From assembly GCA_041917435.1 (NCBI GenBank), contig JAYRXR010000207.1:1-64000 (forward strand): DNA of 64,000 bases, read 5' to 3'. How positions within the stretch are numbered: the stretch's first letter is position 1; every line of letters begins with the position of its first letter. The position numbers and the translations under genes are program-made. The DNA is from Actinomycetota bacterium (GTDB taxonomy: Bacteria > Acidobacteriota > Blastocatellia > Chloracidobacteriales > Chloracidobacteriaceae). This document shows positions 20,893 to 55,342 of the stretch, in pieces. The notes under the pieces are model-generated. The model saw only the letters and a program-made list of their open reading frames with translations. It made no database searches and was not told the DNA's origin.

Positions 20893-21042
20893 CGCTTCTT
20901 TCATTGCGAACCATTCGAACCCGATGTTAGATTCATCACGTTTCAAACGAAGCTGAACGACCAACCAATCCGAAAGCGCGACCCGCCCCGTACGCCAGCG
21001 AGGATTCACAACTCCTTGTAAAAGCGTGCCTTGGGGAAACTT

Positions 21043-22458
21043 ATGGCTGATGCCTACGATTTGATCGTCATCGGAGCCGGTTCCGGCGGCCTGACCGCCG
21101 CAGGCTTCGCCGCGCAACTTGGCGCGAAGGTGGCGCTCGTCGAAAAACACCGCGTCGGCGGCGACTGCACCTGGACCGGCTGCGTGCCGAGCAAGGCGCT
21201 TTTAAAAGCCGGAAAAATCGCTCACGAAGTTCGCAACGCGGCCCATTACGGCATCGTCGCCGAGCCGCCGCGCGTGGATATGGCGAAGGTGCGCGATTAC
21301 GTCCGGAGCATCGTCGAGGAAGTCTACAGCCACGAAACGCCGGACAAACTTCGCCACGAAGGCATCGAGGTCTTCATCGCGCCGGCGAAGTTCATCGACG
21401 CCCACACGATTTCGGCGGGCGATCAGACGCTGACCGCGAAGTACTTCCTCATCTGCACCGGCGCGCATCCGTCCGATCCCGGCATTCCGGGAATCGCCGA
21501 CGTGCCCTACATCACCTACGAGCAGATTTTCGACAACGACGTGCTTCCCGACCGCCTGCTCGTCGTCGGGGCCGGTCCAATCGGGATGGAAATGGCGCAG
21601 GCGTACCAGCGGCTCGGTTCAAAGGTGACGATGATCGCCCGGCGGCTGCTCCCGAAGGAAGAACCCGAGGTTTCCGAAGTCATCGAGCGCGTCTGCGGAC
21701 GCGAAGGCATGCGGTTTTTAAAAGGTCGCGCCACGTCGGCCCGGATGGACGGCGCGGAAATCGTGGTCGAAACCGACGCGGGCGAGGCGCGCGGCGACAT
21801 GCTGCTCGTCGCCTCCGGACGCAAACCGACGGTCCACGGTCTCGATCTCGAAAAGGCGGGCGTGAACTTTTCCGAAAAGGGCATTCCGGTCGATTCCACC
21901 CTGCGAACCAACGTCAAACACATCTTCGCGGCGGGCGACGTGGTCGGAAGCCACCAGTTCACCCATTTCGCGGGCTGGCAGGCGTTTCAGGCGGTCCGAA
22001 ACGCGCTGCTGGTCGGCAGTACTTCAGGTTTTACCGATGTCGTGCCGTGGGTCACTTTCACCGACCCCGAAGTCGCCCACGTCGGGCTGACCGAAGCCGA
22101 GGCCCGCGCGCGATTCGAAAAAATCGGGACCGAAATCAGGGTGACGCGCTGGGAAATGGCCCGGACCGACCGCGCCCTGTGCGACAACGACGGCGACGGG
22201 TTCATCAAGGTCATTACCAAGGCCGACGGCACGCTGCTCGGCGCGACGATGGTCGCCGGACGCGCGGGCGAGGCGATTACCGAGTTCATTCTCGCCCTGA
22301 AAAACGGCCTGAAAGTGGCCGATCTGGCGAATGCGATTCATGCGTACCCGACCTACTCGACCGCCGTTCAACAACTGGCGGCGGGGGTCGCGGTCGAGAA
22401 CTTCCTCACCGGGACGGCGGGCAAAATCGTCCGAAGTCTTTCGAAAATCATCCGTTAA
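21043..22458 (+). CDS. class I pyridine nucleotide-disulfide oxidoreductase (dihydrolipoamide dehydrogenase/mercuric reductase-like)
   Basis: FAD motif GAGSGG, redox-active CTWTGC (CxxxxC), an NAD GxGxxG motif and a C-terminal dimerisation domain. An ATG at 21043 is preferred over the TTG at 21031. Confidence 0.75.
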   Translation: MADAYDLIVIGAGSGGLTAAGFAAQLGAKVALVEKHRVGGDCTWTGCVPSKALLKAGKIAHEVRNAAHYGIVAEPPRVDMAKVRDYVRSIVEEVYSHETPDKLRHEGIEVFIAPAKFIDAHTISAGDQTLTAKYFLICTGAHPSDPGIPGIADVPYITYEQIFDNDVLPDRLLVVGAGPIGMEMAQAYQRLGSKVTMIARRLLPKEEPEVSEVIERVCGREGMRFLKGRATSARMDGAEIVVETDAGEARGDMLLVASGRKPTVHGLDLEKAGVNFSEKGIPVDSTLRTNVKHIFAAGDVVGSHQFTHFAGWQAFQAVRNALLVGSTSGFTDVVPWVTFTDPEVAHVGLTEAEARARFEKIGTEIRVTRWEMARTDRALCDNDGDGFIKVITKADGTLLGATMVAGRAGEAITEFILALKNGLKVADLANAIHAYPTYSTAVQQLAAGVAVENFLTGTAGKIVRSLSKIIR

Positions 22459-22459
22459 A

Positions 22460-22585
22460 CAGTGGCCAGCAGTCAGCAGCCAGTGGTCAGTATTTGAATC
22501 AACCTTGTCAAACTTCAACGTCACCTTTTGAAATAATGGCAACTGGCGACTGACCACTGACGACCGGCAACTGACTACTGACCCA
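22460..22585. repeat. STR-armed hairpin (cagtggt family)
   Basis: Left arm cagtggccagcagtcagcagccagtggtcagt, a ~47-nt loop and right arm gcaactggcgactgaccactgacgaccggcaactgactactgaccc. Confidence 0.5.
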
Positions 22586-22601
22586 CAAGGAGCCGTTTTC
22601 A

Positions 22602-24134
22602 ATGAGTGAACCGACCGCTGTCGTCGAACCGACTGTCGCGCCGCCGCCTCCGAAAAAGAAGGATGCCGACTATGTTTTTCTCGAACTGACCCGCAGTATC
22701 TGTTCGGAATGCAAAAAGGTGCTGGACGCCCACGTCATCGTCCGGAACAACAAGGTCTACATGCGGAAACGCTGCGACTGCGAGGCGACCGGGGGCAAGA
22801 CGATCGAATCGCTGATCTATTCCGACGCGAACGCCTACATTCACAACGTCCGCTACAACAAGCCGGGCACGATTCCGCTGCATTACAACAGTGAAGTCGT
22901 CGAAGGCTGCCCGCATGACTGCGGCCTCTGCCCCGACCACCAGCAGCACACCTGCCTCGGCATCATCGAAGTCAACAGCTACTGCAACATGGATTGCCCG
23001 CTGTGCTTCGCCGAAGCCGGTCCGGGCTTCCAGCTCACGATGGAAGAAGTCGTGGACATTCTCGACAACTTCGTGAAGGCCGAGGGCCGGGCGGAAGTGG
23101 TGCAGTTTTCGGGCGGCGAGCCGAGTATCCACCCGCAGATTCTCGACTTCATGCGCGAGGCCAAGAAGCGTCCGATCAACCTCGTGATGCTCAACACCAA
23201 CGGCAAGCGCATTGCCAAGGACGACCAGTTTCTCGAAGAACTCGCCGAAATCCGGCCCGCCATCTACTTCCAGTTCGACGGCTTCGACAAGGAGACGTAC
23301 CGCGTCATCCGCGGCGAGGAAAACATCCTCGAAGAAAAGCTCAGGGCGCTCGACCGGCTGGCTGAAAAAGGCATGTCCGTGGTGCTCGTGCCGGCCATCG
23401 AACGCGGCGTCAACGACCATGAAGTCGGCAGGATCGTGAAGTTCGCGATGGAGCACCCGGCGGTGCGCGGGGTCAACTTCCAGCCCGCGTTCCACGCCGG
23501 ACGCCACATGGACCACGACCCGATGCAGCGCATGACGATTCCCGACATCGTCGGCATGATCGAGACGCAGACCGAGGAAATGTTCAAGAAGAGCGACTTC
23601 ATCCCCGTTCCCTGCTGCTTCCCGACCTGCAATTCGGTGACCTACGCCTTCATTGAAAACGGCAACGTAACGCCGCTGCCGCGCGTGGTGAACGTCTACG
23701 ATTACCTCGACTACATCACGAACAAGGTCCTGCCGGACTACAGTTCGGAGATCAAGATCGCGCTGGAAGGGCTGTGGTCGTCCTCGACCGCGCCGGGCAC
23801 GCAGAAAAACGCCGAGGACTTCCAGGTTTCCTGCCAGGCGTGCGGTTTCGAGTCGTTCAGCATCGGCGACATCGCCAAGAACGTGAAGATGATCATGATG
23901 CAGGACTTCATGGACCCGCACACCTTCAATCAGAAGAACCTGATGAAGTGCTGCAAGGAATTCCTGCTGCCGGGCGGCAAGCAGGTGCCGTTCTGTTCCT
24001 ACAACACGATCGGCTACCGCGAACAGGCCCGCGAACAGCTCGACGAGATGGAATGGGAGCGCAAACTGGCGAAGAAAGAAGGCAAGCCTTTCGAGGTTCG
24101 CCCGGTGACATTCTCGTTCAAGGACAAGAAATAA
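22602..24134 (+). CDS. radical SAM enzyme with N-terminal Cys4 ribbon and two auxiliary Cys clusters (tetraether/membrane-spanning lipid synthase-like)
   Basis: AAGGAG RBS. CSEC...CDC forms a rubredoxin/Zn-ribbon-like site. An auxiliary CPHDCGLCPDHQQHTC motif precedes the radical SAM CNMDCPLC (CX3CX2C) and GGEP motifs. C-terminal Cys motifs (CCFPTC, CQAC, CC...C) follow. Length 510 aa. Confidence 0.7.
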   Translation: MSEPTAVVEPTVAPPPPKKKDADYVFLELTRSICSECKKVLDAHVIVRNNKVYMRKRCDCEATGGKTIESLIYSDANAYIHNVRYNKPGTIPLHYNSEVVEGCPHDCGLCPDHQQHTCLGIIEVNSYCNMDCPLCFAEAGPGFQLTMEEVVDILDNFVKAEGRAEVVQFSGGEPSIHPQILDFMREAKKRPINLVMLNTNGKRIAKDDQFLEELAEIRPAIYFQFDGFDKETYRVIRGEENILEEKLRALDRLAEKGMSVVLVPAIERGVNDHEVGRIVKFAMEHPAVRGVNFQPAFHAGRHMDHDPMQRMTIPDIVGMIETQTEEMFKKSDFIPVPCCFPTCNSVTYAFIENGNVTPLPRVVNVYDYLDYITNKVLPDYSSEIKIALEGLWSSSTAPGTQKNAEDFQVSCQACGFESFSIGDIAKNVKMIMMQDFMDPHTFNQKNLMKCCKEFLLPGGKQVPFCSYNTIGYREQAREQLDEMEWERKLAKKEGKPFEVRPVTFSFKDKK

Positions 24135-24213
24135 ACACAGAGACACAAAGTCACGAAGACACAAAGATTCCTTTCTTTTCTTCGTGCCTTCGTGACTTTG
24201 TGCCTTCGTGTTG
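24135..24213. repeat. STR-armed hairpin (cacaaag/cacgaag family) between rSAM and methyltransferase genes
   Basis: aacacagagacacaaagtcacgaagacacaaag-attcctttcttttc-ttcgtgccttcgtgactttgtgccttcgtgtt. Confidence 0.5.
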
Positions 24214-24230
24214 AAACAAAGGAGTTTCCG

Positions 24231-25037
24231 ATGAGCACTTCAGCGGTCGAGCAACAGTCGCCCGAAAACGTCAAATCCTGCTGCGCCAACTTTTATGAAA
24301 GCGAAGCCGTCCGGTTTCTGTTCGGTGATTCGTTCCATCCGGGCGGACTCGCCCTCACCGAACGCCTCGGCGTGGTGGTCGGCCTGACCGCCGACTCGAA
24401 AGTCCTCGACGTCGCCTCCGGCAAGGGGACGAGCGCCTTTCATCTCGCCCAAAAGTTCGGCTGCTCGGTCATCGGCGTCGATTTCGGCAAGGAAAACGTC
24501 CGTGAATCCAACGAACGCGCCGCGCAAGTCGGCCTCGCCGACAAGGTGTCGTTCATTCAGGGCGACGCCGAAAATCTGCCGTTCGGGGACGCCGAGTTCG
24601 ACGCCATCGTCTGCGAATGCGCCTACTGCACGTTTCCCGACAAACCGAAAGCCGCGACCGAGTTCTTCCGGGTCCTGAAAACCGGCGGTCGGGTCGGCCT
24701 GAGCGATCTCACCCGTAACGGGAAACTCAACGAAGACCTTGAAACGCTGCTGGCGTGGGTCGCCTGCATCGCCGATGCGCAACCCATCGAAGAATACGCC
24801 GCGCTGCTGAAAGGCGGCGGATTCAATGTGGACATTCTTGAACCGCACAACGATGCGCTCGGCGAGATGGTCAACGGCGTCAGAATGAAGCTGATGGGCG
24901 CGGAACTGATGGTCGGATTGAAGAAACTCGATCTTCCGGGCGTCGATTTCCCGAAGGCCAAGCGCGTGACGCAGAGTTCGGTCGAGGCCATCAACAACGG
25001 TACGCTCGGGTACGCCATCGTCTGCGGCGTGAAATAG
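24231..25037 (+). CDS. arsM: ArsM-type (arsenite) SAM-dependent methyltransferase
   Basis: AAGGAG RBS at 24218. The N-terminal SCC, the class I MTase GxGxG region (LDVASGKG), and Cys in VCECAYC and WVACIAD align with the As-binding cysteines of characterised ArsM. Confidence 0.6.
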   Translation: MSTSAVEQQSPENVKSCCANFYESEAVRFLFGDSFHPGGLALTERLGVVVGLTADSKVLDVASGKGTSAFHLAQKFGCSVIGVDFGKENVRESNERAAQVGLADKVSFIQGDAENLPFGDAEFDAIVCECAYCTFPDKPKAATEFFRVLKTGGRVGLSDLTRNGKLNEDLETLLAWVACIADAQPIEEYAALLKGGGFNVDILEPHNDALGEMVNGVRMKLMGAELMVGLKKLDLPGVDFPKAKRVTQSSVEAINNGTLGYAIVCGVK

Positions 25038-25055
25038 TCCGCCACGGTTTGAACT

Positions 25056-25103
25056 TTCGTGAAGTCCGGTCGTCCGGCGGGACTTCACGCTTTCCCTTTT
25101 TCA
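25056..25103 (+). terminator. intrinsic terminator after methyltransferase gene
   Basis: cgtgaagtcc-ggtcgtccggcg-ggacttcacg followed by ctttccctttttc. Confidence 0.5.
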
Positions 25104-25148
25104 AAACAACAAGGAGTTTTTCACCCCCAATAAGAAAGGACAGAAACG

Positions 25149-25835
25149 ATGGACGCACCAAAGCGCGTTTTTTCGAAAATGCTCCTCCTGGTCGCCGCGA
25201 TTTTCTGTTGTACATCTGGAATCGTCGCCCAAAGCTCCCAAAAAACCGATAATCAGGTCTGGCCCGAAATCGACCTCGACATCGGCATCACCAAGCGCGT
25301 CACCTTCAACATGTTCACCTATCTCCGGGAAGGTCATGATTTTTCCTATCCGGTCAACGATGAACTCGGGGTCGGATTCACCTACAAATTCAACGACCAT
25401 TTTTCGCTGACCCCGCTCTATCGGGGCTTCATCAACCAGACGCCCGGTCAGAAAAGAGTCACCGAGCATTTCTTCACGCTCGATGGAATGGTCCGCGCCT
25501 CGGCCAAAACATTGAACTTCGCCGACCGCAACCGCCTCGAACTGGGTTCCTCGAACGACCGTTTCGCCTCGTTTTACCGGAACCGGCTTGAAATCAACCG
25601 TCCGGTCAAGGTCAGTGACCATGGCGTCACGCCCTACGTTCAGCAGGAGTTTTTCTACAACCTGCGCGAAAACCGCATCGTGCGGGACGAGTTCACCGCC
25701 GGTCTGCGCGTGCCGGTTCACCAGAACGTGACCGTCAGCGGGTACTACCTGCGGCAATTCAATTTCAGTCGCGGGGCAACCGACGCCAATGTCATCGGCG
25801 CGGCGCTCAGTTTCAGTTTCAACATGAAGAAATAG
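25149..25835 (+). CDS. putative outer-membrane beta-barrel protein (DUF2490-like)
   Basis: Signal peptide (MLLLVAAIFCCTSGIVAQS) followed by an alternating hydrophobic beta-strand pattern with aromatic-rich Y/F residues. Confidence 0.4.
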   Translation: MDAPKRVFSKMLLLVAAIFCCTSGIVAQSSQKTDNQVWPEIDLDIGITKRVTFNMFTYLREGHDFSYPVNDELGVGFTYKFNDHFSLTPLYRGFINQTPGQKRVTEHFFTLDGMVRASAKTLNFADRNRLELGSSNDRFASFYRNRLEINRPVKVSDHGVTPYVQQEFFYNLRENRIVRDEFTAGLRVPVHQNVTVSGYYLRQFNFSRGATDANVIGAALSFSFNMKK

Positions 25836-25847
25836 GGGAAACCAGCC

Positions 25848-28349
25848 ATGTCCCGAAAGAAACAGGAATCCGGTTCCCGCCGGGAATTTCTCAAAGGCGC
25901 GTCGGTGGCGGTCGGCGCGCTCGGGCTGTCGTTCGACGTCCGAACCGACGCCGCCGCCCCGAATGTCGCTCCGACGCCGGGTTCGGACGATTTCTCGAAA
26001 GCCTCCGCCGCGCTCCAGCCCGACGCCACCGTCAAAACGGCGTGTCAGTTCTGCAATTCCAACTGCGGATTGAACATCGAGAAGAAAGCCGGGCGGGTGA
26101 TCCGCGTTCATGGCTTTGCGGACGACCCGGTGCAGGCGGGCGAAATCTGCGTGAAGGCCGAGATGATGCCGCAACTGGTTTACAACCGGTTCCGGCTCAC
26201 GCATCCGCTCAAGCGGGTTGCGGGCGCGAAGGGTTCGCCCGATTCGAAGTTTGAAAAAATCTCGTGGGACGAGGCCCTCGGCCTCATCGCCGACAAATTT
26301 CTCGCGCTGCGCGACGCGGGCGAGGCGCACACCATCGTCAACCGGACGACCGGTCGGATGCTTCGGGGCACGGGTTCCGTCATCAACCGGTTCTTTTCCC
26401 TGCTCGGCAGCCCGAACGACACCGACGTGGGTCCGGTGTGCAACGACGCGGGCGGCAACGCGCTGGCGGCGACGTTCGGAATGGGAAATTTCACGAACGG
26501 CTACGGCGTGGACCAGATTACCGGCAAGGAAGACCTCGGGAGTTCGAAGTTTTATCTTTTCCTCGGCACGAATCAGGGCGAAACGCACCCGGTCACCTTT
26601 TCCCATCTTTTAAGAAGCCGTGAAAAGACGAAGGCGAAACTGGTGGTGGTCGATCCGCGCCTGACGCCCACCGGCGAAAAGGCCGACGAATGGCTCGCCA
26701 TCCGGCCCCATTCGGACATGGCGCTCGGGCTGGCGATGCTCCATCACGTCATTGAAAAAGGTCTTTACGACCGGGAATTCGTCGCGAAATGGACGGTGGG
26801 CTTTGATGAACTGAAAAAACATCTGCTTGAAAAGAAGTACACCCCGGAGTGGGCGGCGGGCGCGACCGACATTCCGGCGGCCAAAATCGTGGAACTGGCG
26901 GAGGGCTACGCGAAGGCGAAACCGGCGGCGATTTTCTGCAACGCCGGCATCTCCCATCAGATGAACGCCTTCCAGACTTATCGGGTGTTCGCGATGCTTG
27001 CGGCAGTCACCGGAAACGTCGGCAAACCGGGCGGCGGATGCAATTTCATGCACAACACCTGGCCCGGCGGACTGAACCTGCCCGCCACCACCGGTGAGAC
27101 ACCAAAACCGGCGCATCCCGCGCTGCCGGTCGGGCCGGACAATCTCGCCGAGGCGATTCTGACCGGAAAACCGTACCCCGTGCGGGCCTACGTGTCGTCG
27201 GGAAACCCGCTGATCGGCTCGGCGAACACCAACAAGGTCGCCGCCGCGCTCAAAAAGCTCGAATTTTACGTCTATACCGGCCTCGTGATGGAGGAAGCGG
27301 CCTTTTACGCCGACGTCATCCTTCCGGTCGCGAGCGGGCTGGAATTCGAAGGCGTCTACATGCGGCGCGACGACCGGGCGATCCGCTGGCAGAATCAGGC
27401 GGTCCCGCGGGTCGGCGAATCGAAGACCGACCCCGAAATCTGGATCGACCTCGCGCACGCGATGGCGAAAAAGGATCAAAAGCGGAAACCGTCCGACTGG
27501 ACCGACAACTTTCCACTCGCCTGGAAGGACTACAAACAGCTCTGGGACATCTTCGCCTCGCTCACGCCGGGCGTCGGCGGGATGACCCGCCAACGGCTGG
27601 CCGCGAGCGCGACGCCGCTGCGGTTTCCCTGTCCGGATGAAAAACATCCGGGCACGAGCACGATGTACCTCGATCATCCCGAATGGTACCGCGCGCTTGA
27701 ATCGTTGAATCCGGCCAACCGGGGCAAGCGGTTTCCGACGGCGAGCGGCAAGGTGGAACTGTTCACCCCGGCGCTCGACGCGAAACTGGCCGTCGCCGGA
27801 CATTCCGCGCTGCCGGTGTTCTATACCCATCCGGAGATCGCGGGCGACCAGCCGAGCGTCGTTTTTACGAATGAACTCGTCGCCAACCCGGTGAATCCGC
27901 AGGCATTTACGTCAAAGGTCAATATCGGTGTGAAATCCGGTTTCAAGGAACGGGCGGCGTTTCCGCTGACCGGCATCGTCGGGCGGGCGAGCGTCGTGCA
28001 TTTCGCGGGCGTGACCCAGTGGACCTACCTCGGGAAGCAGTTGAACGGGGTCCGGCTGGTTCAGATTCACCCGAAAACGGCGGCGGCGGCGGGCATTTCC
28101 GACGGCGAAACGGTCGTGGTGGAGAGTCCGCGCGGGGCGATTACCGGCACGGCGCTGCTCTGGAAGGGTATTCGCGAGGATTCGGTGTTCGTCCAGAATT
28201 CGTTCGGCCCGGCGCAGGCGGCGGGGGATGAATTCGGCGTTCCGCGCTACGCGGCGGCGAACGTCCTGCTCGACGACGCCAATTACGACAATCTTTCGGG
28301 GCAGCAGGCGTACAAGTGCTTCGCCTGCCGGGTCAAACCGGCAAAGTAG
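25848..28349 (+). CDS. TAT-exported molybdopterin (bis-MGD) oxidoreductase catalytic subunit
   Basis: Twin-arginine motif SRREFLKG and an N-terminal 4Fe-4S motif CQFCNSNCG. The protein has the MopB superfamily length and a C-terminal MGD-binding barrel. Confidence 0.75.
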   Translation: MSRKKQESGSRREFLKGASVAVGALGLSFDVRTDAAAPNVAPTPGSDDFSKASAALQPDATVKTACQFCNSNCGLNIEKKAGRVIRVHGFADDPVQAGEICVKAEMMPQLVYNRFRLTHPLKRVAGAKGSPDSKFEKISWDEALGLIADKFLALRDAGEAHTIVNRTTGRMLRGTGSVINRFFSLLGSPNDTDVGPVCNDAGGNALAATFGMGNFTNGYGVDQITGKEDLGSSKFYLFLGTNQGETHPVTFSHLLRSREKTKAKLVVVDPRLTPTGEKADEWLAIRPHSDMALGLAMLHHVIEKGLYDREFVAKWTVGFDELKKHLLEKKYTPEWAAGATDIPAAKIVELAEGYAKAKPAAIFCNAGISHQMNAFQTYRVFAMLAAVTGNVGKPGGGCNFMHNTWPGGLNLPATTGETPKPAHPALPVGPDNLAEAILTGKPYPVRAYVSSGNPLIGSANTNKVAAALKKLEFYVYTGLVMEEAAFYADVILPVASGLEFEGVYMRRDDRAIRWQNQAVPRVGESKTDPEIWIDLAHAMAKKDQKRKPSDWTDNFPLAWKDYKQLWDIFASLTPGVGGMTRQRLAASATPLRFPCPDEKHPGTSTMYLDHPEWYRALESLNPANRGKRFPTASGKVELFTPALDAKLAVAGHSALPVFYTHPEIAGDQPSVVFTNELVANPVNPQAFTSKVNIGVKSGFKERAAFPLTGIVGRASVVHFAGVTQWTYLGKQLNGVRLVQIHPKTAAAAGISDGETVVVESPRGAITGTALLWKGIREDSVFVQNSFGPAQAAGDEFGVPRYAAANVLLDDANYDNLSGQQAYKCFACRVKPAK

Positions 28350-28373
28350 GAAAAGCGAAAAGGAAGAACACGG

Positions 28374-28811
28374 ATGAGTGAACGGATTTTTCCCGCCGAC
28401 CTGACGGCGGAGTTTCTGAATTCCTTCAGCAAGGGGCTGACCCGCCATCTCGGCATCGAGTATCTCGAAGTCGGCCCCGATTTTCTGACCGCGCGGATGC
28501 CGGTGGACGATCGCACCCGTCAGCCCTACGGCATTTTGCACGGCGGCGCGTCGGTGGTTCTGGCGGAATCGCTCGGCAGCGTGGCGGCTCATATTGTTGC
28601 CGGAGGAAACAAGGCCACGGTCGGACTTGAAATCAATGCCAACCACGTTCGCGCCGTACGCGAAGGATATGTCATCGGAACGGTGACGCCGCTTCACATC
28701 GGCGGGCGGACGCACGTCTGGGAGATCAAAATCAGGTCGGAGGATGGGAAACTCGTGTGCGTGAGCCGGCTGACCGTGGCAGTGCTGGACTCAGCGCCGG
28801 GGAAGTCGTAA
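28374..28811 (+). CDS. PaaI-family hotdog thioesterase
   Basis: Contains the motif ILHGGASVVLAESLGS. Confidence 0.7.
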   Translation: MSERIFPADLTAEFLNSFSKGLTRHLGIEYLEVGPDFLTARMPVDDRTRQPYGILHGGASVVLAESLGSVAAHIVAGGNKATVGLEINANHVRAVREGYVIGTVTPLHIGGRTHVWEIKIRSEDGKLVCVSRLTVAVLDSAPGKS

Positions 28812-29000
28812 CACGTTTCTCCGGAAGGCGTTGGCTTCGCTCGCACCGGTCGTGAAAAACAGGGCGCTCAGGCTGGAAAAAAATTTTCCGACTCCGGAAT
28901 TTCGCTCGGGTAAATTGCCAAACCCGACTCTTTTTGCAATACTCGACGGCAAGTAAATTTCATTACTGGAATGCCATCAGCCTTTTTTCGAGGTGAAGGA

Positions 29001-29330
29001 ATGAGTGTTGCCCCCGAACAAGGGTCTAATTTGAAGCCGCTTCCCCCGGACGCGCCCCTGTCCCGGATTGATCAGGTCGTGGTGCGCGACATCGCCGGAG
29101 AAACGCTGCTCATTCCCATCCGCAGCAACGTGGCCCAACTCGAATCGGTTTTCGTCCTGAACGATACCGGCAAATTCATCTGGGAAAATATCGACGGGAC
29201 CAATTCGGTTCACGGAATCGTAACCCTGATGTGCGACACATTCGAGGTCGCTGACGAGGAAGCGGAAGCCGACGTCGCCGAGTTCGTCGGATTGCTGGCC
29301 TCCGCCGGGCTGGTCACCGCAACAGTCTGA
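29001..29330 (+). CDS. PqqD-family peptide chaperone (RRE)
   Basis: AGGTGAAGGA RBS before ATG 29001. The ~110-aa protein has the PqqD pattern (LNDTGKFIWENIDG...VADEEAE..DVAEFV). Confidence 0.55.
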   Translation: MSVAPEQGSNLKPLPPDAPLSRIDQVVVRDIAGETLLIPIRSNVAQLESVFVLNDTGKFIWENIDGTNSVHGIVTLMCDTFEVADEEAEADVAEFVGLLASAGLVTATV

Positions 29331-29352
29331 TTCCGAAATAGTTTACGCTCCT

Positions 29353-30642
29353 ATGATTCCTCAGATCGGATACAACGAGTTCAGTCAGCGTTTGCATGGG
29401 TCGGTCTTCACCCATCGCGCGCCCCTCGACGTCACGTTCGAGATGACGCGCCGCTGCCCGTTGACCTGTCTGCACTGCTACAACAACCTGCCGATGAACG
29501 ACCCGGCGCGCCGAAACGAACTGACGCTCAACGAATACAAGCGGCTGTTCGATGAATTCGCCGAACTCGGGACCCTGTGGCTCTTGTTCACCGGCGGCGA
29601 GATTTTCGCCCGGCCGGATTTCCTCGACATCTACACCGAAGCCAAAAAACGCGGCTTCCTGATCACCCTGTTCACCAACGGAACGCTGATCAACGAGAAA
29701 ATCGCCGACCATCTGGCCGAATACAAACCGTTCGCGATTGAAATCACACTCTACGGGCACACGCGCGAGACGTACGAAAAGCTGACCCGGATTCCCGGTT
29801 CCTTCGACCGCTGCCATCGGGGCATTCAACTGTTGCTTGAGCGGGGGCTTCCCCTCACGCTGAAGACCGTCGGGACGACCATCACGAAGGACGAAATTTA
29901 TGAAATGCGGGCCTTCGCGGAAAATCTCGGTCTCGATTTCAAGTTCGACAGCATGATGAATCCCCGGATCGACTGCTCGCAGAGTCCGCTCGACGTGCGG
30001 CTGACGCCCGAGGAGGTCGTCGAACTCGATCTGAAGGACGCCCGGCGGATGCCCGAATGGGATCAGCTTTTCAGCCGCTACCGGGCGGCGCTGTCGAACC
30101 CGCTGGTCAGCGAAACAGTGTATTCCTGCGGGGGCGGCATTGCCTCGTGCGCGGTCAGTCCGTACGGCGAGATGACCATCTGCGTCTTGTCGCAGGTTGA
30201 CCGGTTCGACCTGCGAAACGGTCCGGCCCGCGAAGGCTGGGAGCATTTTCTCAGGGAAGTCCGGATGCTCCAGCGGACCCAGCCGGTCAAGTGCAACAGT
30301 TGTGAAATCCGTTCGATGTGTTCGGGATGCGCCGCGATGAGCGAGCTTGAATACGGCGACAAGGAGGTTCCGGTCGATTTTTTCTGCCGAACGAACCACC
30401 TGCGCGCCTATCTGCTCGGTCTGGACTTGAAACCGAACCCCTTGTGCGAATACCGTCCGGGGAGCGAACGTTACGAAGAAATACAAACTTCGGTGGCGGA
30501 ATTGCGTCGTAAGGCTGAAGAATACGGCCACTGGACGCCCCCGACGACGAACGGACGTAGTTTACCGGTTTTTCAAACCCCGCCGTCACCATCCGATGAT
30601 TTCTGCAACGGTTTCAATCGTTATGCCGTTGCCGAAGGATAA
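29353..30642 (+). CDS. radical SAM/SPASM-domain peptide maturase
   Basis: CPLTCLHC (CX3CX2C) and a C-terminal SPASM 7-Cys region (CGGGIASC...C...CNSCEIRSMCSGC) are present. A ~90-aa tail follows the SPASM region. Confidence 0.8.
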   Translation: MIPQIGYNEFSQRLHGSVFTHRAPLDVTFEMTRRCPLTCLHCYNNLPMNDPARRNELTLNEYKRLFDEFAELGTLWLLFTGGEIFARPDFLDIYTEAKKRGFLITLFTNGTLINEKIADHLAEYKPFAIEITLYGHTRETYEKLTRIPGSFDRCHRGIQLLLERGLPLTLKTVGTTITKDEIYEMRAFAENLGLDFKFDSMMNPRIDCSQSPLDVRLTPEEVVELDLKDARRMPEWDQLFSRYRAALSNPLVSETVYSCGGGIASCAVSPYGEMTICVLSQVDRFDLRNGPAREGWEHFLREVRMLQRTQPVKCNSCEIRSMCSGCAAMSELEYGDKEVPVDFFCRTNHLRAYLLGLDLKPNPLCEYRPGSERYEEIQTSVAELRRKAEEYGHWTPPTTNGRSLPVFQTPPSPSDDFCNGFNRYAVAEG

Positions 30643-30704
30643 TCATTCAATTTCGTTTTAGTACCTCTGACGAAATTCACTATCGAATCGAAAGAGAGTT
30701 TGCC

Positions 30705-30902
30705 GTGAACAACCAGAAGAACCACAGCAGCGCCAATTCCGAAACCTCCCAGTCGGTGAAGCGGACCTACCGCAAGCCCCGGATTGAATCGGTTGAAATG
30801 CGTCCGAATGAGGCGTTGCTCGGCGCCTGCAAGACTTCGAGTTCCGCCGGCCCGGCGTCGCCGTCGTGCAGTACCTTGAGCTGCTCCTCGCTCGGCTCGT
30901 AA
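30705..30902 (+). CDS. putative RiPP precursor peptide (Cys/Ser/Thr-rich core)
   Basis: GTG start with an AAAGAGAG RBS 6 nt upstream. The 65-aa protein has a charged leader (KRTYRKPRIESVEMRPNEALLG) and a core ACKTSSSAGPASPSCSTLSCSSLGS. It lies between the maturase and kinase genes. Confidence 0.45.
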   Translation: MNNQKNHSSANSETSQSVKRTYRKPRIESVEMRPNEALLGACKTSSSAGPASPSCSTLSCSSLGS

Positions 30903-30918
30903 CCGCTTGCCGGAAGTG

Positions 30919-31857
30919 ATGCTCATGAACGCAGCGTCGGCGACCGCCGAATCTGAAAACCCTTCGTCCCCGACCCGAACGCTTTCACTCGGCGGTTTGA
31001 CCATTCGCCTGATCGGGTCGGGCGCGTCCGCTCCCCTGATTGAGCCGGTTTCCCGGCGTTTTCTGGTGGATTCGGACGAAAAACCGGCTATCGCGCTCGA
31101 AATCGGCGAGGGCGATCCGGCGGAATTCGAGAGTCTGGCTCGTCAAAAGCCTTTTTTCGATTCCGGCGGGACGTGGAAGCTCTATCGGAAAGACGGAAAG
31201 CTCGTCTACGCCGTCACGGTTCCGATTTTCGGTGATATTCCCTACCGTTTTCTCGAAGTCGCCGACGATTTCTCATCGGGTCGGCTGCTGATCAATCCGA
31301 AGGCCGGAGTTCCCGACCACTGCCTTTTCCCGCTCGCCTTCCCCCTCGACGAACTTCTCATCGCGAATCTGCTGACCCTCCCCGGAAACGAAGGGGTACT
31401 GCTCCATGCCTGCGCGGTGACCGACCCGGACGGAAACGCTTTCGTCTTCGTCGGACAATCCGGGGATGGAAAATCCACCACCGCCCGGCTCTGGGCCGCG
31501 CGCGCGGGGATGACCATTCTGACGGACGAACGGGTCATCATCCGTCGTCACGACGACGGGTTTTATGTGTACGGCACGCCCTGGCACGGCGACCAGCTCG
31601 CCGCCGTGGCCGACCGGGCCAAAATTTCCGGTCTGTTCATTCTCCGCAAGGGTCAGGCCAACGCCGTCACTGAAACCCGGCCCAGCCTTGCGTCCGCGCT
31701 CCTGTTCGCGCGGTGTTTCCCGCCGCTTCACTCTCCGGAAAGTCTTTCCGCGACGGCGGCTCTTCTTGAATCCCTCGTCACCAACGTTTCCTGTCGGGAA
31801 CTTCATTTCCTTCCGGACAACTCCGCCGTGGATTTCGTCCGCGGGCTTTTCGCCTGA
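30919..31857 (+). CDS. HPr kinase C-terminal-domain-like P-loop protein (HprK-related kinase)
   Basis: P-loop GQSGDGKST in an HprK_C-like context (LLHACAV...G.AFVFVG.SG.GKST). Confidence 0.6.
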   Translation: MLMNAASATAESENPSSPTRTLSLGGLTIRLIGSGASAPLIEPVSRRFLVDSDEKPAIALEIGEGDPAEFESLARQKPFFDSGGTWKLYRKDGKLVYAVTVPIFGDIPYRFLEVADDFSSGRLLINPKAGVPDHCLFPLAFPLDELLIANLLTLPGNEGVLLHACAVTDPDGNAFVFVGQSGDGKSTTARLWAARAGMTILTDERVIIRRHDDGFYVYGTPWHGDQLAAVADRAKISGLFILRKGQANAVTETRPSLASALLFARCFPPLHSPESLSATAALLESLVTNVSCRELHFLPDNSAVDFVRGLFA

Positions 31858-31863
31858 CGCGCC

Positions 31864-32283
31864 ATGAAATCGGCGTTCGGCAGTTTCGGGGAAAATCTCG
31901 GCGGTGTTTTTCCGAGGGTCGCCATGGAACTGCTCCGGGAAGGCCGGGCAATCCGTTTTCGGGCGGTTGGATGGAGCATGCACCCGGCCATCGAGGATGG
32001 TGAAACCATTTCGGTTCATCCAATCTCCCCGATGGACCTGAATGTCGGGGATGTCGCCCTTTTCCACATTGAAGACCGGTTGATCGCCCACCGGGTTCTC
32101 CGGTGTCCCTCCCCCGAAAACCCGAATTTTTTGTTGCGGGGGGACGCAATGGCGGAAGGCGAATCCGTAACCGGGGATCAAATTCTCGGAATTGTCCCGG
32201 ACCGGTCACTCGCGCCCCGTCAGGCTGCGGCCAAACGGCTGGTTCATCGGCTCAAACGACGGCTTTTCCCCAAAAAACCGTAA
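31864..32283 (+). CDS. S24/S26 (LexA/signal-peptidase fold) peptidase
   Basis: GWSMHPAIEDGETISV matches the G-SM-P-DGD-V Ser nucleophile region. The ORF is 139 aa. Confidence 0.5.
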   Translation: MKSAFGSFGENLGGVFPRVAMELLREGRAIRFRAVGWSMHPAIEDGETISVHPISPMDLNVGDVALFHIEDRLIAHRVLRCPSPENPNFLLRGDAMAEGESVTGDQILGIVPDRSLAPRQAAAKRLVHRLKRRLFPKKP

Positions 32284-32309: not shown

Positions 32310-33500
32310 TTACTTCCGGACAATCGCGCACCCAAGCGCCGGGCGGCAGCCATCCGTGATGGTTTGGCCAGCCAGTACGGCGTCGAGCGCAAGCTGGAGC
32401 GACCGGTGCGTCACCCGATCCGCGTGGTACGTGTTGTCGTCAATCCTTCCGTGATAACGAAGAAATCCTTTTGAATCAATAAGGTATGACTCCGTCATAC
32501 ACATCGAGTTGAGTGTGTCGGCAACCGCGTGCCCGGTATCCACCGCAATCGGGAAATTGAAGGGCCGCGCCTGCTGTCGATTCCGGATTTCCTGGGGGGG
32601 TTCGTTGGCGTTCGGATTGAAACCGATGAAAACGACGCCCTTTTCACCATAGATTTTGGCCAGATCGTTTAACCGCGCCCGGTACGCCTCGACGCAGGGA
32701 CAACGCGTGCCGACCGTCACCAGAACGACCGGTTTCCCTTTGTAATCCGAGAGTTTATGAACTTTCCCGTCCAGGTCGGTCAGGGAAAGGGCCGGCGCGG
32801 GTTCGTTCAACCCGACCGCCGCTTCGTCGGCGGATTGCGCGTGGCCGGCGTGTTCGAAATCGTCGCCGACCGTTCTCCCGCTGAGCAGATCGAAACCGAA
32901 CGCCCCCGCGCCGAAAATCGAGCTGACGAACAATCCGAGAATACAACCGGCCACGGCGGCGGTCCGGACGGTTTTCGGACCGAAAACGGCCGGGAACGCC
33001 TGCTGGGCGGTCAGAATCGGCAGCCCGCCGAAGCCGAAACAGGCCATGGCAATCGCGCCCTGCTTCACTTCCCACGTCGTGAACGCCAGAACGAAAACCG
33101 CCAGAACCAGAATATTCGGGTGAAGTATCGAAAACGCCCCGCGCAGGAACAAACCGCCGGCACTCTCGGCGTTCAGCAGGATTCCCGTCAGTTTCTTCGA
33201 CCATTCAGGCTCGAACGTATCGGCCTTGGAACGAAAAAGCCTGACCGGGAGCGCAATCGCGGCAAACGCCACGACCACGCAGGGGATAAAGAAAACGTAC
33301 CTTCCCCAGCCGATGAGATAGGCGGCTTCGATAAACCAGAGACCGAGTTGACCGGCAAACGCGCCGAGCGCGGCCAGTCCGGCGACGCGTCCGAGACCGA
33401 ACGTCATCAGTTTGGAGGGATCGAACCGGTCCAGCCGGGCCGTCCGCATGCGTAACCGTTCGATGATGCCGAGCAGAAAGGCGGCAATCAGAAAAACCAT
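32310..33500 (-). CDS. MauE/DoxX-type membrane domain fused to thioredoxin-like (TlpA/redoxin) domain
   Basis: The N-terminal ~200 aa is polytopic membrane. The C-terminus has a thioredoxin fold with the motif TRCPCV. Confidence 0.6.
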   Translation of the reverse strand: MVFLIAAFLLGIIERLRMRTARLDRFDPSKLMTFGLGRVAGLAALGAFAGQLGLWFIEAAYLIGWGRYVFFIPCVVVAFAAIALPVRLFRSKADTFEPEWSKKLTGILLNAESAGGLFLRGAFSILHPNILVLAVFVLAFTTWEVKQGAIAMACFGFGGLPILTAQQAFPAVFGPKTVRTAAVAGCILGLFVSSIFGAGAFGFDLLSGRTVGDDFEHAGHAQSADEAAVGLNEPAPALSLTDLDGKVHKLSDYKGKPVVLVTVGTRCPCVEAYRARLNDLAKIYGEKGVVFIGFNPNANEPPQEIRNRQQARPFNFPIAVDTGHAVADTLNSMCMTESYLIDSKGFLRYHGRIDDNTYHADRVTHRSLQLALDAVLAGQTITDGCRPALGCAIVRK

Positions 33501-33586
33501 GCAAAACTCCTTTTTTCAGTAGCCAGTCGCCAGTGGTCAGCCGCCAGTGAATGAAGCCGGACGGAAGACCACGAGTTTGAACTGAT

Positions 33587-35663: not shown

Positions 35664-37640
35664 TTACTTTGCAAACTCCCGGAAACGCCCTAAAGCCATC
35701 AGCGGGAAGTAGTTCCGGTAAAAGTGGTAGTTCATGTAGAAGTGGTTCGGGAAGCCCGTGCCGGTGTATTCCGGCTCGGTCCAGCTTCCGTCGTCGTTCT
35801 GCGTGGTCACGAGGTATTCGATGCCGCGCCGCACGCATTCCGACTTCCCTTCGCCGCCCGCAATCAGGCCGAGAATCGCCCACGCGGTCTGTGACGCGGT
35901 GCTTTTGCCCTGTCCCATCAGGTTCCGGTTGCCGTAGCTCAGGCAGGTTTCGCCCCAGCCGCCGTCTTCGTTCTGGCAGGAATTGAGCCACTGGGTCGCG
36001 TGCATGATGTACGCCTCGCGCGGGTCGAGGCCGAGCGCGACGAGGCCGCAGATGACCATGTGCGTGCCGTAGATGTAATTGACGCCCCAGCGTCCCCACC
36101 AGCAGCCCTCGTGTTCCTGCTTCTGGCGGATGAACGCCACCGCCCGGTCGATTTTCTCCTTCGGCGCGGGGTAATCCGTCACCCCGAGCATTTCAAGAAC
36201 ATGCCCGGTCAGGTCGGCGGTCGGCGGGTCGATCATCGCCTTCAAATCGCCGTACGGAATCTCATTGAGGATTTCCATGTCGTTATCGACATCGAACGCG
36301 CCCCAGCCGCCGCCCTTGCACTGCATCGACAGCACCCACTCGGTCGCGGCCTTCAACCGGCGCTGCTTGTCTTCCTCGTTTTTCAACTTTAGCCGATGGA
36401 GCGCCATGATGACGACGCTCGTGTCGTCGGTGTCGGGGAAGAAATCGTTCCAGAATTCGAACGCCCAGCCGCCCTGCGGTCCGGTCTTGTTTTTGAACTT
36501 CCAGTCGCCGTCGCGGAAAATCTGCTTTTCAATCAGCCATTCGCCCGCCCGGACGAGCGCCGGGTGGTCGGGGGCCATCCCCGAATCGAGCATGGCGAGA
36601 ATCATCAGGCCGGTGTCCCACACGGGCGAGACGCAGGGCTGGGTGTGAAAATCCTCGTCGGTCTCGATGCAGAACTTGTCCACCGCGTCGAGGCCCTTTT
36701 TCATGATCGGATGGTCCGGCTGGTAGCCCCGGCAGTGCAGCCCGAGCAGCGAATTGAGCATGGCCGGGATGATGCCGCCCCAGTCGCCGCTTTCGTCCTG
36801 ATGCTCGATGGTCCACTTTTCGGCGAGCGCGAGGGCTTCTTCCCGGCGCGGCGAAAAGTTGTATTTCTCCATCAGTTTCAATGTTTTATCGACACCGATG
36901 AAGGCCCCGCCGAGGGAAAACGTCCCCGCCGGATTGGGGATCGCGAGCTTGGCGTTGTCGCGCCCTTCGACGTAAAGCTCGTCAACGTGGCCGTTCGGGA
37001 CCTTCGTCACGGGCTTTTTGTCGCAGACGATGAGCAGCGGCACCGTCGAACTCCGCGCCCAGCTCGCCAGTTCGTAAATCGTGAACGGAAACCAGTCCGG
37101 CAGCAGCATGATCCACGGCGGCATGGTCGGGCAGCCTTCCCACGGGAACGCGCCGAACAGGGCGAGGTGGATCTTCGTGAAAATGCGCGACTTGGTGACG
37201 CCGCCTTTCGCCAGAATGAATTCCCGCGCCTTCTTCATGTGCGGGTCGTCGGGCGAATCGCCGAGAATTTTCAACGCGAAATAGGCTTCGATGCTGGTCG
37301 AAAGCTCGCCGCCGTCGCCGAAAAACAGTTCCCATCCGCCGTGTTCGCGCTGTTCCTTCCGCAAATAGGTCCGGATTTTCGCCATCTGCGTGACGCGCGA
37401 GCCGTCGGTGCCGAGAATCTTGTGCAAAAAGACGTACTCGGCGGTCAGCGTGACGTTGGCTTCGAGTTCGGCCCACCAGTAGCCCTCGGGATACTGCTTG
37501 CCGAGCAGGTAATTCTGGGAACGTTCGATGGTCGCTTCGACGGATTCCTTCGAATAGGGGGCCGGGCGAACGGAACGAACGCCGAGCGGAACACGCGATT
37601 CCACGGCCGGCATCGGGTACACATCTTTAAAACTGGTCAT
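35664..37640 (-). CDS. shc: squalene-hopene cyclase
   Basis: GAGGAAG RBS with start at ATG 37638-37640. Multiple QW motifs (QxxxGxW), the catalytic DTDDTSVV (DxDDTA) motif and a ~660-aa length support the call. Confidence 0.85.
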   Translation of the reverse strand: MTSFKDVYPMPAVESRVPLGVRSVRPAPYSKESVEATIERSQNYLLGKQYPEGYWWAELEANVTLTAEYVFLHKILGTDGSRVTQMAKIRTYLRKEQREHGGWELFFGDGGELSTSIEAYFALKILGDSPDDPHMKKAREFILAKGGVTKSRIFTKIHLALFGAFPWEGCPTMPPWIMLLPDWFPFTIYELASWARSSTVPLLIVCDKKPVTKVPNGHVDELYVEGRDNAKLAIPNPAGTFSLGGAFIGVDKTLKLMEKYNFSPRREEALALAEKWTIEHQDESGDWGGIIPAMLNSLLGLHCRGYQPDHPIMKKGLDAVDKFCIETDEDFHTQPCVSPVWDTGLMILAMLDSGMAPDHPALVRAGEWLIEKQIFRDGDWKFKNKTGPQGGWAFEFWNDFFPDTDDTSVVIMALHRLKLKNEEDKQRRLKAATEWVLSMQCKGGGWGAFDVDNDMEILNEIPYGDLKAMIDPPTADLTGHVLEMLGVTDYPAPKEKIDRAVAFIRQKQEHEGCWWGRWGVNYIYGTHMVICGLVALGLDPREAYIMHATQWLNSCQNEDGGWGETCLSYGNRNLMGQGKSTASQTAWAILGLIAGGEGKSECVRRGIEYLVTTQNDDGSWTEPEYTGTGFPNHFYMNYHFYRNYFPLMALGRFREFAK

Positions 37641-37723
37641 CCGAGAAAAACTTCCTCTGTAAAACTCTTCCGAAGTGGACGAATCCGCCAAAATAGCGAA
37701 TCGCCATCCAAAGCGACAATGCC

Positions 37724-37872
37724 AAAGGATGAAGGATGAGGGATGAAGGATGAAAAATCGTTTTGAATGTTGAGTTTGGGCGAAATAAGGAATTTTTCCG
37801 AATTCCGAAAAACTCATAATTCATCACTCAAAACTTTCCTTCATCCTTCATCCTTCCGCCTTCATCCTTTCA
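37724..37872. repeat. STR-armed hairpin (ggatgaa family) with nested palindrome
   Basis: aaaggatgaaggatgagggatgaaggatgaaaaa ... ccttcatccttcatccttccgccttcatcctttc. The loop contains tttttccgaattccgaaaaa. Confidence 0.5.
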
Positions 37873-55209: not shown

Positions 55210-55212
55210 AGA

Positions 55213-55340: not shown

Positions 55341-55342
55341 CA

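Follow-up and report, generated by a model that had tools for sequence, protein, structure and literature searches.

The 64,000-nucleotide stretch of acidobacterial DNA analysed here (contig JAYRXR010000207.1; hereafter the window, numbered from its first letter) carries a gene for a cysteine-rich radical S-adenosylmethionine (SAM) enzyme of 510 aa, which raises the question of whether a bacterium encodes its own tetraether lipid synthase. The first-pass annotation, made from the sequence alone, had proposed such a function on the model of Tes (GDGT-MAS), the archaeal enzyme making glycerol dialkyl glycerol tetraethers (GDGTs). The protein is a real multi-cluster enzyme and kin of the archaeal tetraether lipid synthase, but lies in a separate branch. 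As this branch is separate, always accompanied by a Cys-rich methyltransferase and usually by a disulfide reductase, the enzyme is probably not a tetraether synthase. We are highly confident that it belongs to a distinct, methyltransferase-coupled branch of the Tes/TrsS superfamily and is not a Tes orthologue. It is the radical SAM component of a conserved and uncharacterised soil-bacterial module, whose nearest described relative is the TrsS/DVU_1556 cassette. The reading favoured here, with a probability of roughly 0.4, is that this module would combine C-H activation with the methylation of a thiophilic atom.

The open reading frame (ORF) starts with an ATG preceded by an AAGGAG ribosome-binding site, and its G+C content at third codon positions was 0.84, as expected for a genuine gene of the same genome. 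Pfam detected the domain Zn_ribbon_HMPTM (42 bits) together with Radical_SAM. The cysteine motifs listed by the first-pass annotation were all present, namely those of the ribbon (C34-S-E-C37 ... C58-D-C60), the auxiliary cluster (C103PHDCGLCPDHQQHTC118), the canonical radical SAM site (C128NMDCPLC135) and the C-terminal part (C338C339FPTC343, C411QAC414 and C450C451...C465), and they were conserved in 77 orthologues of 64-99% identity. In these orthologues, 18 of the 19 cysteines were conserved at 99% or more and C60 at 82%, a degree of conservation that is, judged from the alignment, far above chance. The closest relative of the window is a metagenome-assembled genome (MAG) of Blastocatellia, in which the radical SAM enzyme is 99% identical. 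A look-up returned no record of the exact protein sequence, and a 99%-identical one (P0001) was used in its stead.

GDGT-MAS (MJ0619; 7TOL/7TOM) was found to be the closest solved relative. The phmmer search against the PDB matched residues 29-487 to 7TOL with an E value of 4.9e-71, and a full-length pairwise comparison gave 30.8% identity (E 4e-78), the sequence of MJ0619 having been rebuilt from the PDB alignment with 11 residues unknown. A fold search with the AlphaFold2 (AF2) model, which is of low confidence (pLDDT 60), also placed 7TOL first (E 3e-30, TM-score about 0.58), followed by MoaA (1.7e-9); MoaA was the next-nearest radical SAM family in profile and fold searches alike. GDGT-MAS contains a rubredoxin-like Fe site and three [4Fe-4S] clusters (Lloyd et al. 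2022, PMC9433317), in agreement with the architecture given at first pass, and this architecture holds for the present enzyme since the cysteines of the ribbon and of the N-terminal, radical SAM and C-terminal clusters all have counterparts in it. Indeed, the N-terminal mononuclear site, the auxiliary cluster with its His and the radical SAM motif by which Tes is defined were all detected. The order of domains is the same in both proteins (ribbon or rubredoxin site, auxiliary CX3CX2C plus His, radical SAM CX3CX2C, C-terminal cluster cysteines), and the C-terminal cluster cysteines C338, C455 and C470 of GDGT-MAS are all kept as C343, C450 and C465. The fourth ribbon ligand differs, as His36 of GDGT-MAS is replaced by Cys60 in the acidobacterial clade. 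GDGT-MAS also forms an intermediate in which a substrate carbon is bonded to a cluster sulfur (PMC9433317). The two enzymes probably have in common that they abstract hydrogen from an sp3 carbon and involve the C-terminal cluster when the new bond is made.

This kinship did not amount to orthology. Among NCBIfam profiles, Tes (NF045702) was nominally the best with 312 bits in two stretches against an equivalog cutoff of 450, in a near-tie with TrsS (NF045646), which gave 300 bits against a cutoff of 490. The comparison with Tes, proposed as a check at first pass, thus came out divided: Tes ranked first and was alignable at the identity given above, but the score stayed under the equivalog cutoff and close to that for TrsS. 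A HMMER scan of 1.84 billion cluster representatives gave 622 relatives at E<1e-30. Among the full-length representatives, the Tes cutoff was reached only by the MJ0619 clade (P0203, 556 bits; P0254, 545 bits; P0258, 527 bits) and the TrsS cutoff only by P0237 and P0255, the TrsS representatives scoring 533-671 bits on their own profile, and the nearest clades of the enzyme under study (P0121, P0123, P0126, P0130 and others) reached neither.

A simple neighbour-joining tree, read together with a table of cysteines, set the Tes-proper clade, hydrophobic at the positions of C118 and C338, apart from nearly all other clades. The column-by-column comparison located the differences. Tes has I88 in place of C118, and S312 and V313 in place of C338 and C339. 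Tes carries an insertion of about 21 aa before the C-terminal cluster Cys, which is absent here, and the labile ligand Met439 of Tes, found within 'MHF' in eight of the nine Tes-clade sequences, corresponds to Q434 within 'QDF', with Asp at the place of His440. C118 is common to the methyltransferase-paired clades and TrsS but is not found in the Tes-proper clade, whereas the CxxC formed by C411 and C414 occurs only in this enzyme and the methyltransferase-paired clades, and is extra with respect to both Tes and TrsS. The 'QHxC' motif, too, recurs in TrsS and in the remaining non-Tes clades. Because the M439A variant of GDGT-MAS was reported to be still active (PMC9433317), Met439 should be taken as a signature and not as a requirement. 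The assignment outside Tes is based on the missed cutoffs, the cysteines C118 and C338 at hydrophobic Tes positions, and the lack of both the insertion and 'M439-H-F'. Of the Tes proposal, the full-length homology with 7TOL as best PDB match was retained; the function as a tetraether synthase was not, given the low profile score, the absent Tes features and partners unrelated to lipids.

The gene neighbourhood was studied in 80 species-level genomes with homologues at 64-99% identity. Most belong to Acidobacteriota, and the other carriers were Rhodanobacteraceae and other Gammaproteobacteria (one with a closed 5.45 Mb chromosome), Eremiobacterota, Vulcanimicrobiota, Ktedonobacterales and Thermomicrobiales. 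Since a large part of the loci is from MAGs, some taxon labels may be binning errors (for example 'Clostridia', L022), and ORF calling in the related loci was heuristic. The protein was 65-71% identical to its homologues across Acidobacteriota, Gammaproteobacteria, Eremiobacterota and Chloroflexota, and this span of phyla suggests the horizontal spread of an accessory function. In 78 of the 80 genomes, the radical SAM gene was directly followed by one for a methyltransferase homologue, and both exceptions are contig ends. De novo clustering of the neighbours recovered the methyltransferase (73 loci), a MerA/LpdA-like disulfide oxidoreductase (49) and a major facilitator superfamily (MFS) transporter (42), and further a VKOR-family protein (11), a PHO4/PiT-type permease (9) and an ECF sigma factor (8). 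When the 149 nearest remaining ORFs were surveyed with Pfam, AhpC/redoxins, SulP permeases (3 loci) and ZAS anti-sigma factors came up in addition, and no lipid-synthesis genes were found. The module therefore consists of a Tes/TrsS-superfamily radical SAM enzyme and a Cys-rich class-I methyltransferase, usually with a thiol-disulfide partner and an MFS transporter. The pairing is obligate here, whereas none of the three Tes-proper representatives had a class-I methyltransferase neighbour and all three were without the methyltransferase and thiol-redox partners; one of them was situated near a B12-radical SAM gene, as GDGT-modifying genes are. The pair of radical SAM enzyme and methyltransferase was kept in clades at 52, 44, 42 and 38% identity, and in the 52% clade a DsbD_TM protein is encoded upstream in place of the disulfide reductase or VKOR. 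In soil and peat data the family comprised more than 5000 clusters, with best matches at about 70% identity.

The methyltransferase, encoded immediately downstream in the window (Table 1), was best matched in NCBIfam by the DVU_1556 family (135 bits, cutoff 155) and then by ArsM (104 bits). It has seven conserved cysteines (CC30/31, C91, C141, C143, C146 and C192), of which C143 and C192 did not vary across 73 orthologues or in the methyltransferases paired with the radical SAM enzyme in five other clades, nor in the partner of TrsS. The AF2 model (pLDDT 87) matched TleD, AtmM/RebM, MitM, PEAMT, SDMT and a geranyl diphosphate (GPP) C-methyltransferase, but not ArsM. Identification as a true ArsM was rejected at family level, as the score was far from the PRK11873 cutoff of 263 and ArsM ranked only 12-13th by PDB profile and was not in the top 50 by fold. 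In addition, 'HPGG' occupies the place of the presumed 'YGCG' motif with Cys61 of AS3MT. For the catalytic half, the best PDB match was human AS3MT (8XT7), with C143 and C192 aligned to Cys156 and Cys206, both confirmed As-binding residues (PMC3877260). It appears from these alignments that the methyl acceptor, or a metal activating it, would be held by active-site thiolates of the methyltransferase.

The flavoprotein encoded upstream of the radical SAM gene is a class-I pyridine-nucleotide disulfide oxidoreductase (Pfam Pyr_redox_2 and Pyr_redox_dim), with MerA (249 bits) and E3 (240 bits) as the best PDB matches. It retains the disulfide-reductase His within 'HAYPT', where MerA has 'PYLTM'. 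Its candidacy as a true MerA was dismissed, since it scored 364 bits against the NCBIfam cutoff of 454 and ends in ...SKIIR without the C-terminal Cys pair. Of 77 loci, 49 had a homologue no more than 6 kb away from the radical SAM gene. In L004-L084, the loci with the flavoprotein (49) and those with the small membrane protein of the VKOR family (11) never overlapped, which suggests that the two are interchangeable thiol-disulfide partners. MerA/LpdA-like flavoproteins and VKOR normally move electrons in opposite directions, and the mutual exclusivity of the two despite this is accounted for by none of the explanations considered below.

The nearest described arrangement is the Desulfovibrio-type cassette to which NCBIfam assigns TrsS. 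It comprises a Mo-pterin aldehyde oxidoreductase, a pyridine-nucleotide disulfide oxidoreductase/dicluster protein, the redox protein DVU_1557, the DVU_1556 methyltransferase, the C-GCAxxG-C-C protein DVU_1555, TrsS, the CoA ligase DVU_1553 and an XdhC-type maturation factor, the methyltransferase gene lying two genes upstream of TrsS. Our literature search found no paper mentioning DVU_1553-1557. A reduced parallel is present on one strand of the window, in the order disulfide oxidoreductase, radical SAM enzyme and methyltransferase, followed in this lineage only by a Mo-oxidoreductase and a hotdog thioesterase. The two radical SAM enzymes belong to the same superfamily, possess the 'QHxC' motif and lack the Tes insertion, and both cassettes include a pyridine-nucleotide disulfide oxidoreductase (here of the class-I MerA/LpdA type) and a partner methyltransferase with the two invariant active-site cysteines, the methyltransferases here scoring 135-141 bits on the DVU_1556-type profile (NF045667), below its cutoff. 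The differences are also clear. The methyltransferase gene is downstream here and upstream in the TrsS cassette, and its product has an extra N-terminal CC/HPGG region; the adjoining molybdo-enzyme is of the dimethyl sulfoxide (DMSO)-reductase type here and of the xanthine dehydrogenase (XDH) type for TrsS. The TrsS cassette belongs to anaerobes and TrsS itself may be a selenoprotein, whereas the present enzyme, which lacks selenocysteine, is found in aerobic soil phyla. The C-GCAxxG-C-C protein, DVU_1557, the CoA ligase and the XdhC-type factor were found neither in the window nor among the conserved neighbours. Fusions in the superfamily (P0164, P0257, P0259, P0270 and P0241) included LGT::radical SAM (P0164), a MobA-like NTP-transferase with or without HD joined to a TrsS-like domain (P0257 and P0259), class-I methyltransferase::TrsS-like (P0270) and radical SAM::DUF5714. 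Taken at the level of domain architecture, they indicate several distinct functions, which would touch lipids, the Mo-cofactor and methylation. Since the superfamily is functionally this diverse, homology alone cannot assign the function.

From the observed motifs, homology and synteny we infer, tentatively, that a carbon radical is captured on S, Se or As and that this atom is methylated by the partner enzyme. Judging by its motif, the radical SAM cluster would cleave SAM, and the resulting 5'-deoxyadenosyl radical would take a hydrogen from an unactivated C-H bond of a probably hydrophobic substrate, as the homology to GDGT-MAS suggests. Instead of being joined to a second lipid tail, the carbon radical would be caught by S, Se or As at the C-terminal cluster or at a site formed by C118, C338/339, C411 and C414, a step modelled on the C-S(cluster) intermediate that GDGT-MAS forms. 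The methyltransferase may hold the heteroatom between its invariant cysteines and methylate it before or after transfer, the former case being equivalent to a split methylthiotransferase. The disulfide would then be recycled by the reductase and the product might leave via the MFS transporter. MiaB and RimO, radical SAM enzymes with an auxiliary cluster, pass a (methyl)sulfide to a substrate carbon radical, the sulfur being methylated by SAM. They do both jobs in one polypeptide and show no sequence kinship with the present system, in which a separate class-I methyltransferase would act. A mechanism involving a heteroatom is favoured because of the precedent of the C-S intermediate, the extra set of four cysteines, the thiolate-rich active site of the methyltransferase and the disulfide partners, and also because of the sulfate/phosphate-type permeases nearby (PHO4 in 9 loci, SulP in 3), the neighbouring AhpC/redoxins and the MFS exporter.

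Several observations weigh against this reading. The AF2 model of the radical SAM enzyme is of too low quality to tell if the extra cysteines gather near the active site. Both by profile and by structure, Tes remains the best match, and the family is present in exactly those acidobacterial subdivisions (1, 3, 4 and 6) that make iso-diabolic acid. The methyltransferase is, in overall sequence and fold, nearer to natural-product and lipid-headgroup methyltransferases than to ArsM; its likeness to ArsM is limited to two aligned cysteines, as ArsM ranks low by profile and is absent from the top 50 folds, and Zn or an Fe-S cluster may be what the cysteines bind instead. No ars, mer or selenium genes were found in the de novo clusters or in the Pfam census of the 149 nearest ORFs, and no riboswitch or other known RNA was detected upstream.

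The first of the other explanations to be weighed is that of a bacterial synthase of tetraether or membrane-spanning lipids, which would join the omega-carbons of two iso-C15 chains into the cores of iso-diabolic acid or branched GDGTs (brGDGTs), with the methyltransferase perhaps adding the C5/C6 methyls. We consider it unlikely. GDGT-MAS is the closest structure and Tes nominally the best profile, the three Tes cluster motifs and the ribbon are retained, and the family is abundant in Acidobacteria subdivisions 1, 3, 4 and 6 as well as in peat and soil metagenomes. Bacterial Tes homologues were proposed as brGDGT makers by Zeng et al. 2022 (PMC8941075), and papers of 2024-2026 still treat the function of bacterial Tes as unconfirmed. 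The brGDGT producer Edaphobacter aggregans has one Tes homologue with 32% identity (E 4e-61), while those of Solibacter and Koribacter show 40-42% (PMC8941075), figures that imply two kinds of acidobacterial Tes homologue. The family studied here is represented in an Edaphobacter MAG (L062), so that the 32% homologue probably belongs to it as well. In its fold, the methyltransferase is similar to two olefin C-methyltransferases, TleD and GPP C-methyltransferase, and weakly to CMAS, and the LGT fusion in another clade points to recurrent lipid links in the superfamily. Against these points stand the missed Tes cutoff, the absence of the insertion and of Met439, and the cysteines at hydrophobic Tes positions; lipid coupling would not explain the thiol-redox and Cys-rich methyltransferase partners, and no synteny with lipid genes was found. 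Moreover, Tes homologues were detected in only 3 of 14 Acidobacteria producing iso-diabolic acid (Sahonero-Canavesi et al., PMC13159169), E. coli expressing a distant Tes homologue of T. ethanolicus did not form membrane-spanning lipids (bioRxiv 10.1101/2022.04.21.487849), and homologues of about 67-71% identity are encoded by Gammaproteobacteria and Chloroflexota, two groups not known to make lipids of this kind. Mss (Sahonero-Canavesi et al. 2022), also named at first pass and like Tes a radical SAM enzyme coupling lipid tails, is described as only remotely related to Tes, and mss homologues were not detected in Acidobacteria (PMC13159169). It is rather improbable that a Tes-derived enzyme keeps the lipid-tail or alkyl tunnel and traps an omega-carbon radical on S, Se or As in place of a second tail, so that the thiolate methyltransferase would yield lipids or alkyl metabolites with an omega-(methyl)thio, seleno or arseno group; such a module would be a novel type of C-H functionalisation system.

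Slightly less credible than the lipid synthase is a third type of organoarsenical pathway beside ArsS+ArsM (arsenosugars) and ArsL+ArsM (arsinothricin), consisting of As(III) methylation, C-As bond formation, recycling by the reductase and export by the MFS transporter. It would account for the alignment of the methyltransferase cysteines with the As-binding residues of AS3MT, for ArsM-type models ranking next after DVU_1556 in NCBIfam, for the label 'arsenite methyltransferase' given by JGI to about 13 of 120 orthologues of the methyltransferase, and for the PiT-type permease, a possible arsenate carrier, near 9 loci. There is also the precedent of arsQML (PMC8552651), which combines a permease, a methyltransferase and a radical SAM enzyme. 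ArsS+ArsM and ArsL+ArsM+ArsQ indeed follow the same logic of a radical SAM enzyme, a methyltransferase with metalloid-binding cysteines and a permease, but the enzyme here is unrelated to ArsS or ArsL and has no ars context; ArsS had already been set aside at first pass, and this was borne out by a TIGR04167 score of 31 bits against a cutoff of 300, confined to the radical SAM core. ArsR, ArsC, Acr3, ArsB and ArsH were absent among the conserved or nearest neighbours, the ArsM cutoff was widely missed with a fold closer to natural-product methyltransferases, the presumed Cys61 motif is replaced, and the SulP and CysP-like permeases fit S or Se at least as well as As. Our literature search found no paper in which a radical SAM enzyme similar to Tes is connected with arsenolipids or with a methyltransferase of Acidobacteria. 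A role in supporting or maturing a molybdo-enzyme, its cofactor or its substrate, as the TrsS cassette appears to have, we hold to be about as improbable as the tunnel-keeping enzyme. A molybdopterin oxidoreductase gene follows the methyltransferase gene in the same operon in the window and its closest relatives, the TrsS locus has an aldehyde oxidoreductase, XdhC, a disulfide oxidoreductase and a methyltransferase, and MobA-like::TrsS-like fusions and the rank of MoaA as next-nearest radical SAM family point the same way; however, the molybdo-enzyme adjoins the module in just 4 of about 80 loci, it is of another family than that of TrsS, and the locus lacks genes for XdhC, MobA, CoA ligase and the C-GCAxxG-C-C protein. 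Modification of a Cys-containing protein, possibly the methyltransferase itself, or of a peptide is the least plausible: many multi-cluster radical SAM enzymes are maturases, weak NCBIfam matches to SPASM maturases were obtained, and a cassette resembling those for ribosomally made peptides with post-translational modifications (RiPPs) is located 5 kb downstream, but a radical SAM enzyme and PqqD of its own are encoded in that cassette, which is not conserved with the module, neither a precursor-peptide gene nor a RiPP recognition element was found beside the radical SAM gene, and lipids rather than peptides are the substrates of the closest homologue.

The placement of this family outside Tes matters for environmental surveys. 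brGDGTs underlie widely used palaeotemperature and pH proxies, the biological sources of which are unresolved, and their producers have been surveyed by counting bacterial 'Tes homologues' in genomes and metagenomes (PMC8941075, PMC11868695, PMC11214058). Permissive thresholds catch the present family, some members of which are labelled 'tetraether lipid synthase' by JGI. Surveys of tes and arsM may be inflated, because an abundant separate branch and its partner carry such labels. The other JGI label on the radical SAM orthologues is '7,8-dihydro-6-hydroxymethylpterin dimethyltransferase', and the NCBI names are generic only. The module itself is a clean and testable set of two or three genes in dominant soil phyla, with an uncharacterised radical chemistry. 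If the tunnel-keeping enzyme were real, soil Acidobacteria would make the corresponding heteroatom lipids, and it might be a missing enzyme type for arsenolipid-like C-As bonds on unactivated alkyl carbons.

Table 1. Features of the window discussed in the text.
Feature	Position	Strand	Remark
Radical SAM enzyme, Tes/TrsS superfamily, methyltransferase-coupled clade	22602..24134	+	510 aa
N-terminal Cys4 zinc-ribbon/rubredoxin-like site (C34, C37, C58, C60)	22701..22781	+	Aligns with GDGT-MAS C9, C12, C33, H36
N-terminal auxiliary cluster CX3CX2C and His113, then non-Tes 'QHxC' ending at C118	22908..22955	+	C103/C107/C110 correspond to GDGT-MAS C73/C77/C80
Canonical radical SAM CX3CX2C (C128, C132, C135)	22983..23006	+	Corresponds to GDGT-MAS C98/C102/C105; 100% conserved
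C338-C339-F-P-T-C343	23613..23630	+	C343 corresponds to GDGT-MAS C-terminal cluster ligand C338; C338 and C339 extra
C411-x-x-C414	23832..23843	+	Seen only in methyltransferase-paired clades
C450-C451 ... C465, other C-terminal cluster Cys ligands	23949..23996	+	Q434 upstream, in place of GDGT-MAS labile Met439
Class-I pyridine-nucleotide disulfide oxidoreductase, MerA/LpdA-like	21031..22458	+	Probable true start ATG 21043
Redox-active C46-x4-C51 pair of the flavoprotein	21166-21183	+	
Cys-rich class-I SAM methyltransferase	24192..25037	+	Probable start ATG 24231, AAGGAG before it
Invariant cysteines of the methyltransferase	24279-24284 (C30/C31); 24612-24629 (C141-x-C143-x-x-C146); 24765-24767 (C192)	+	
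DUF2490 protein with signal peptide	25149..25835	+	Pfam; between methyltransferase and Mo-enzyme, outside the conserved module
Molybdopterin oxidoreductase, DMSO-reductase family, exported by twin-arginine translocation (TAT)	25848..28349	+	Lineage-specific operon member
Hotdog-fold (4HBT) acyl-CoA thioesterase	28374..28811	+	Lineage-specific, possibly last operon gene
shc (squalene-hopene cyclase)	35664-37817	-	
GT28, monogalactosyldiacylglycerol (MGDG)-synthase-like	43789-44937	-	
PNP_UDP_1 (HpnG-like) protein	53152-54039		In hopanoid/glycolipid run 53152-57172
GT21/GT2 (HpnI-like) protein	54040-55209		In run 53152-57172

Downstream of the methyltransferase gene, the operon in the window is specific to its lineage. 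A homologue of the DUF2490 protein was found in none of the 84 related loci, the 99%-identical relative included, and in this closest relative the genes for the methyltransferase and the Mo-oxidoreductase are 20 nt apart. The DUF2490 gene is, by this comparison, a recent insertion into the operon. The Mo-oxidoreductase was present at the locus only in L001, L002, L005 and L010, and its NCBIfam matches (Fdh-alpha, 308 bits; PhsA, 285 bits; ArrA, 190 bits) were all well under their cutoffs. A scan for promoters and terminators was uninformative, and it gave no convincing plus-strand terminator within 21031-28811.

The genes for hopanoids and glycolipids mentioned by the first-pass annotation do exist, as the shc, HpnI-, HpnG- and GT28-like genes show, and the run at 53152-57172 also includes PMT_2 genes. 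They are, however, 11-30 kb from the radical SAM gene and were syntenic with it in none of the 79 other genomes. A function by association with these genes was rejected on the grounds of the distance of at least 11 kb and the lack of synteny elsewhere.

The peptide-maturation-like cassette mentioned above spans 28971-32283 on the plus strand and encodes a PqqD-family protein (28971-29330), a radical SAM/SPASM-type protein (29353-30642), an HprK-related/ScmC-like protein (30907-31857) and a signal-peptidase/S24-like protein (31864-32283). It is kept in the 99% relative, and all of its NCBIfam matches were far under the cutoffs. By this measure, it is an undescribed variant of the SynChlorMet-type cassettes. 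Adjacent to it on the minus strand, a 396-aa protein (32310-33500) consists of a DsbD_2 transmembrane domain fused to an AhpC/TSA-redoxin, and its gene occupies the same relative position in the closest relative.

A dispersed intergenic repeat based on CTGACYACTGAC gave 9 matches against 0.19 expected (22479-22582, 33529-33540 and 57172-57236). Between the reductase and radical SAM genes, the copies are in an inverted arrangement with a predicted fold of -41 kcal/mol, the z-score of which was only -1.9. Probably, the repeat is REP-like in nature and does not act as a specific regulator. Finally, two Rfam Acido-Lenti-1 RNA motifs were detected in opposite orientation at 40121-40166 (minus strand) and 40270-40315 (plus strand), with 46 and 50 bits against a gathering score of 37, and these copies are consistent with an acidobacterial origin of the window.

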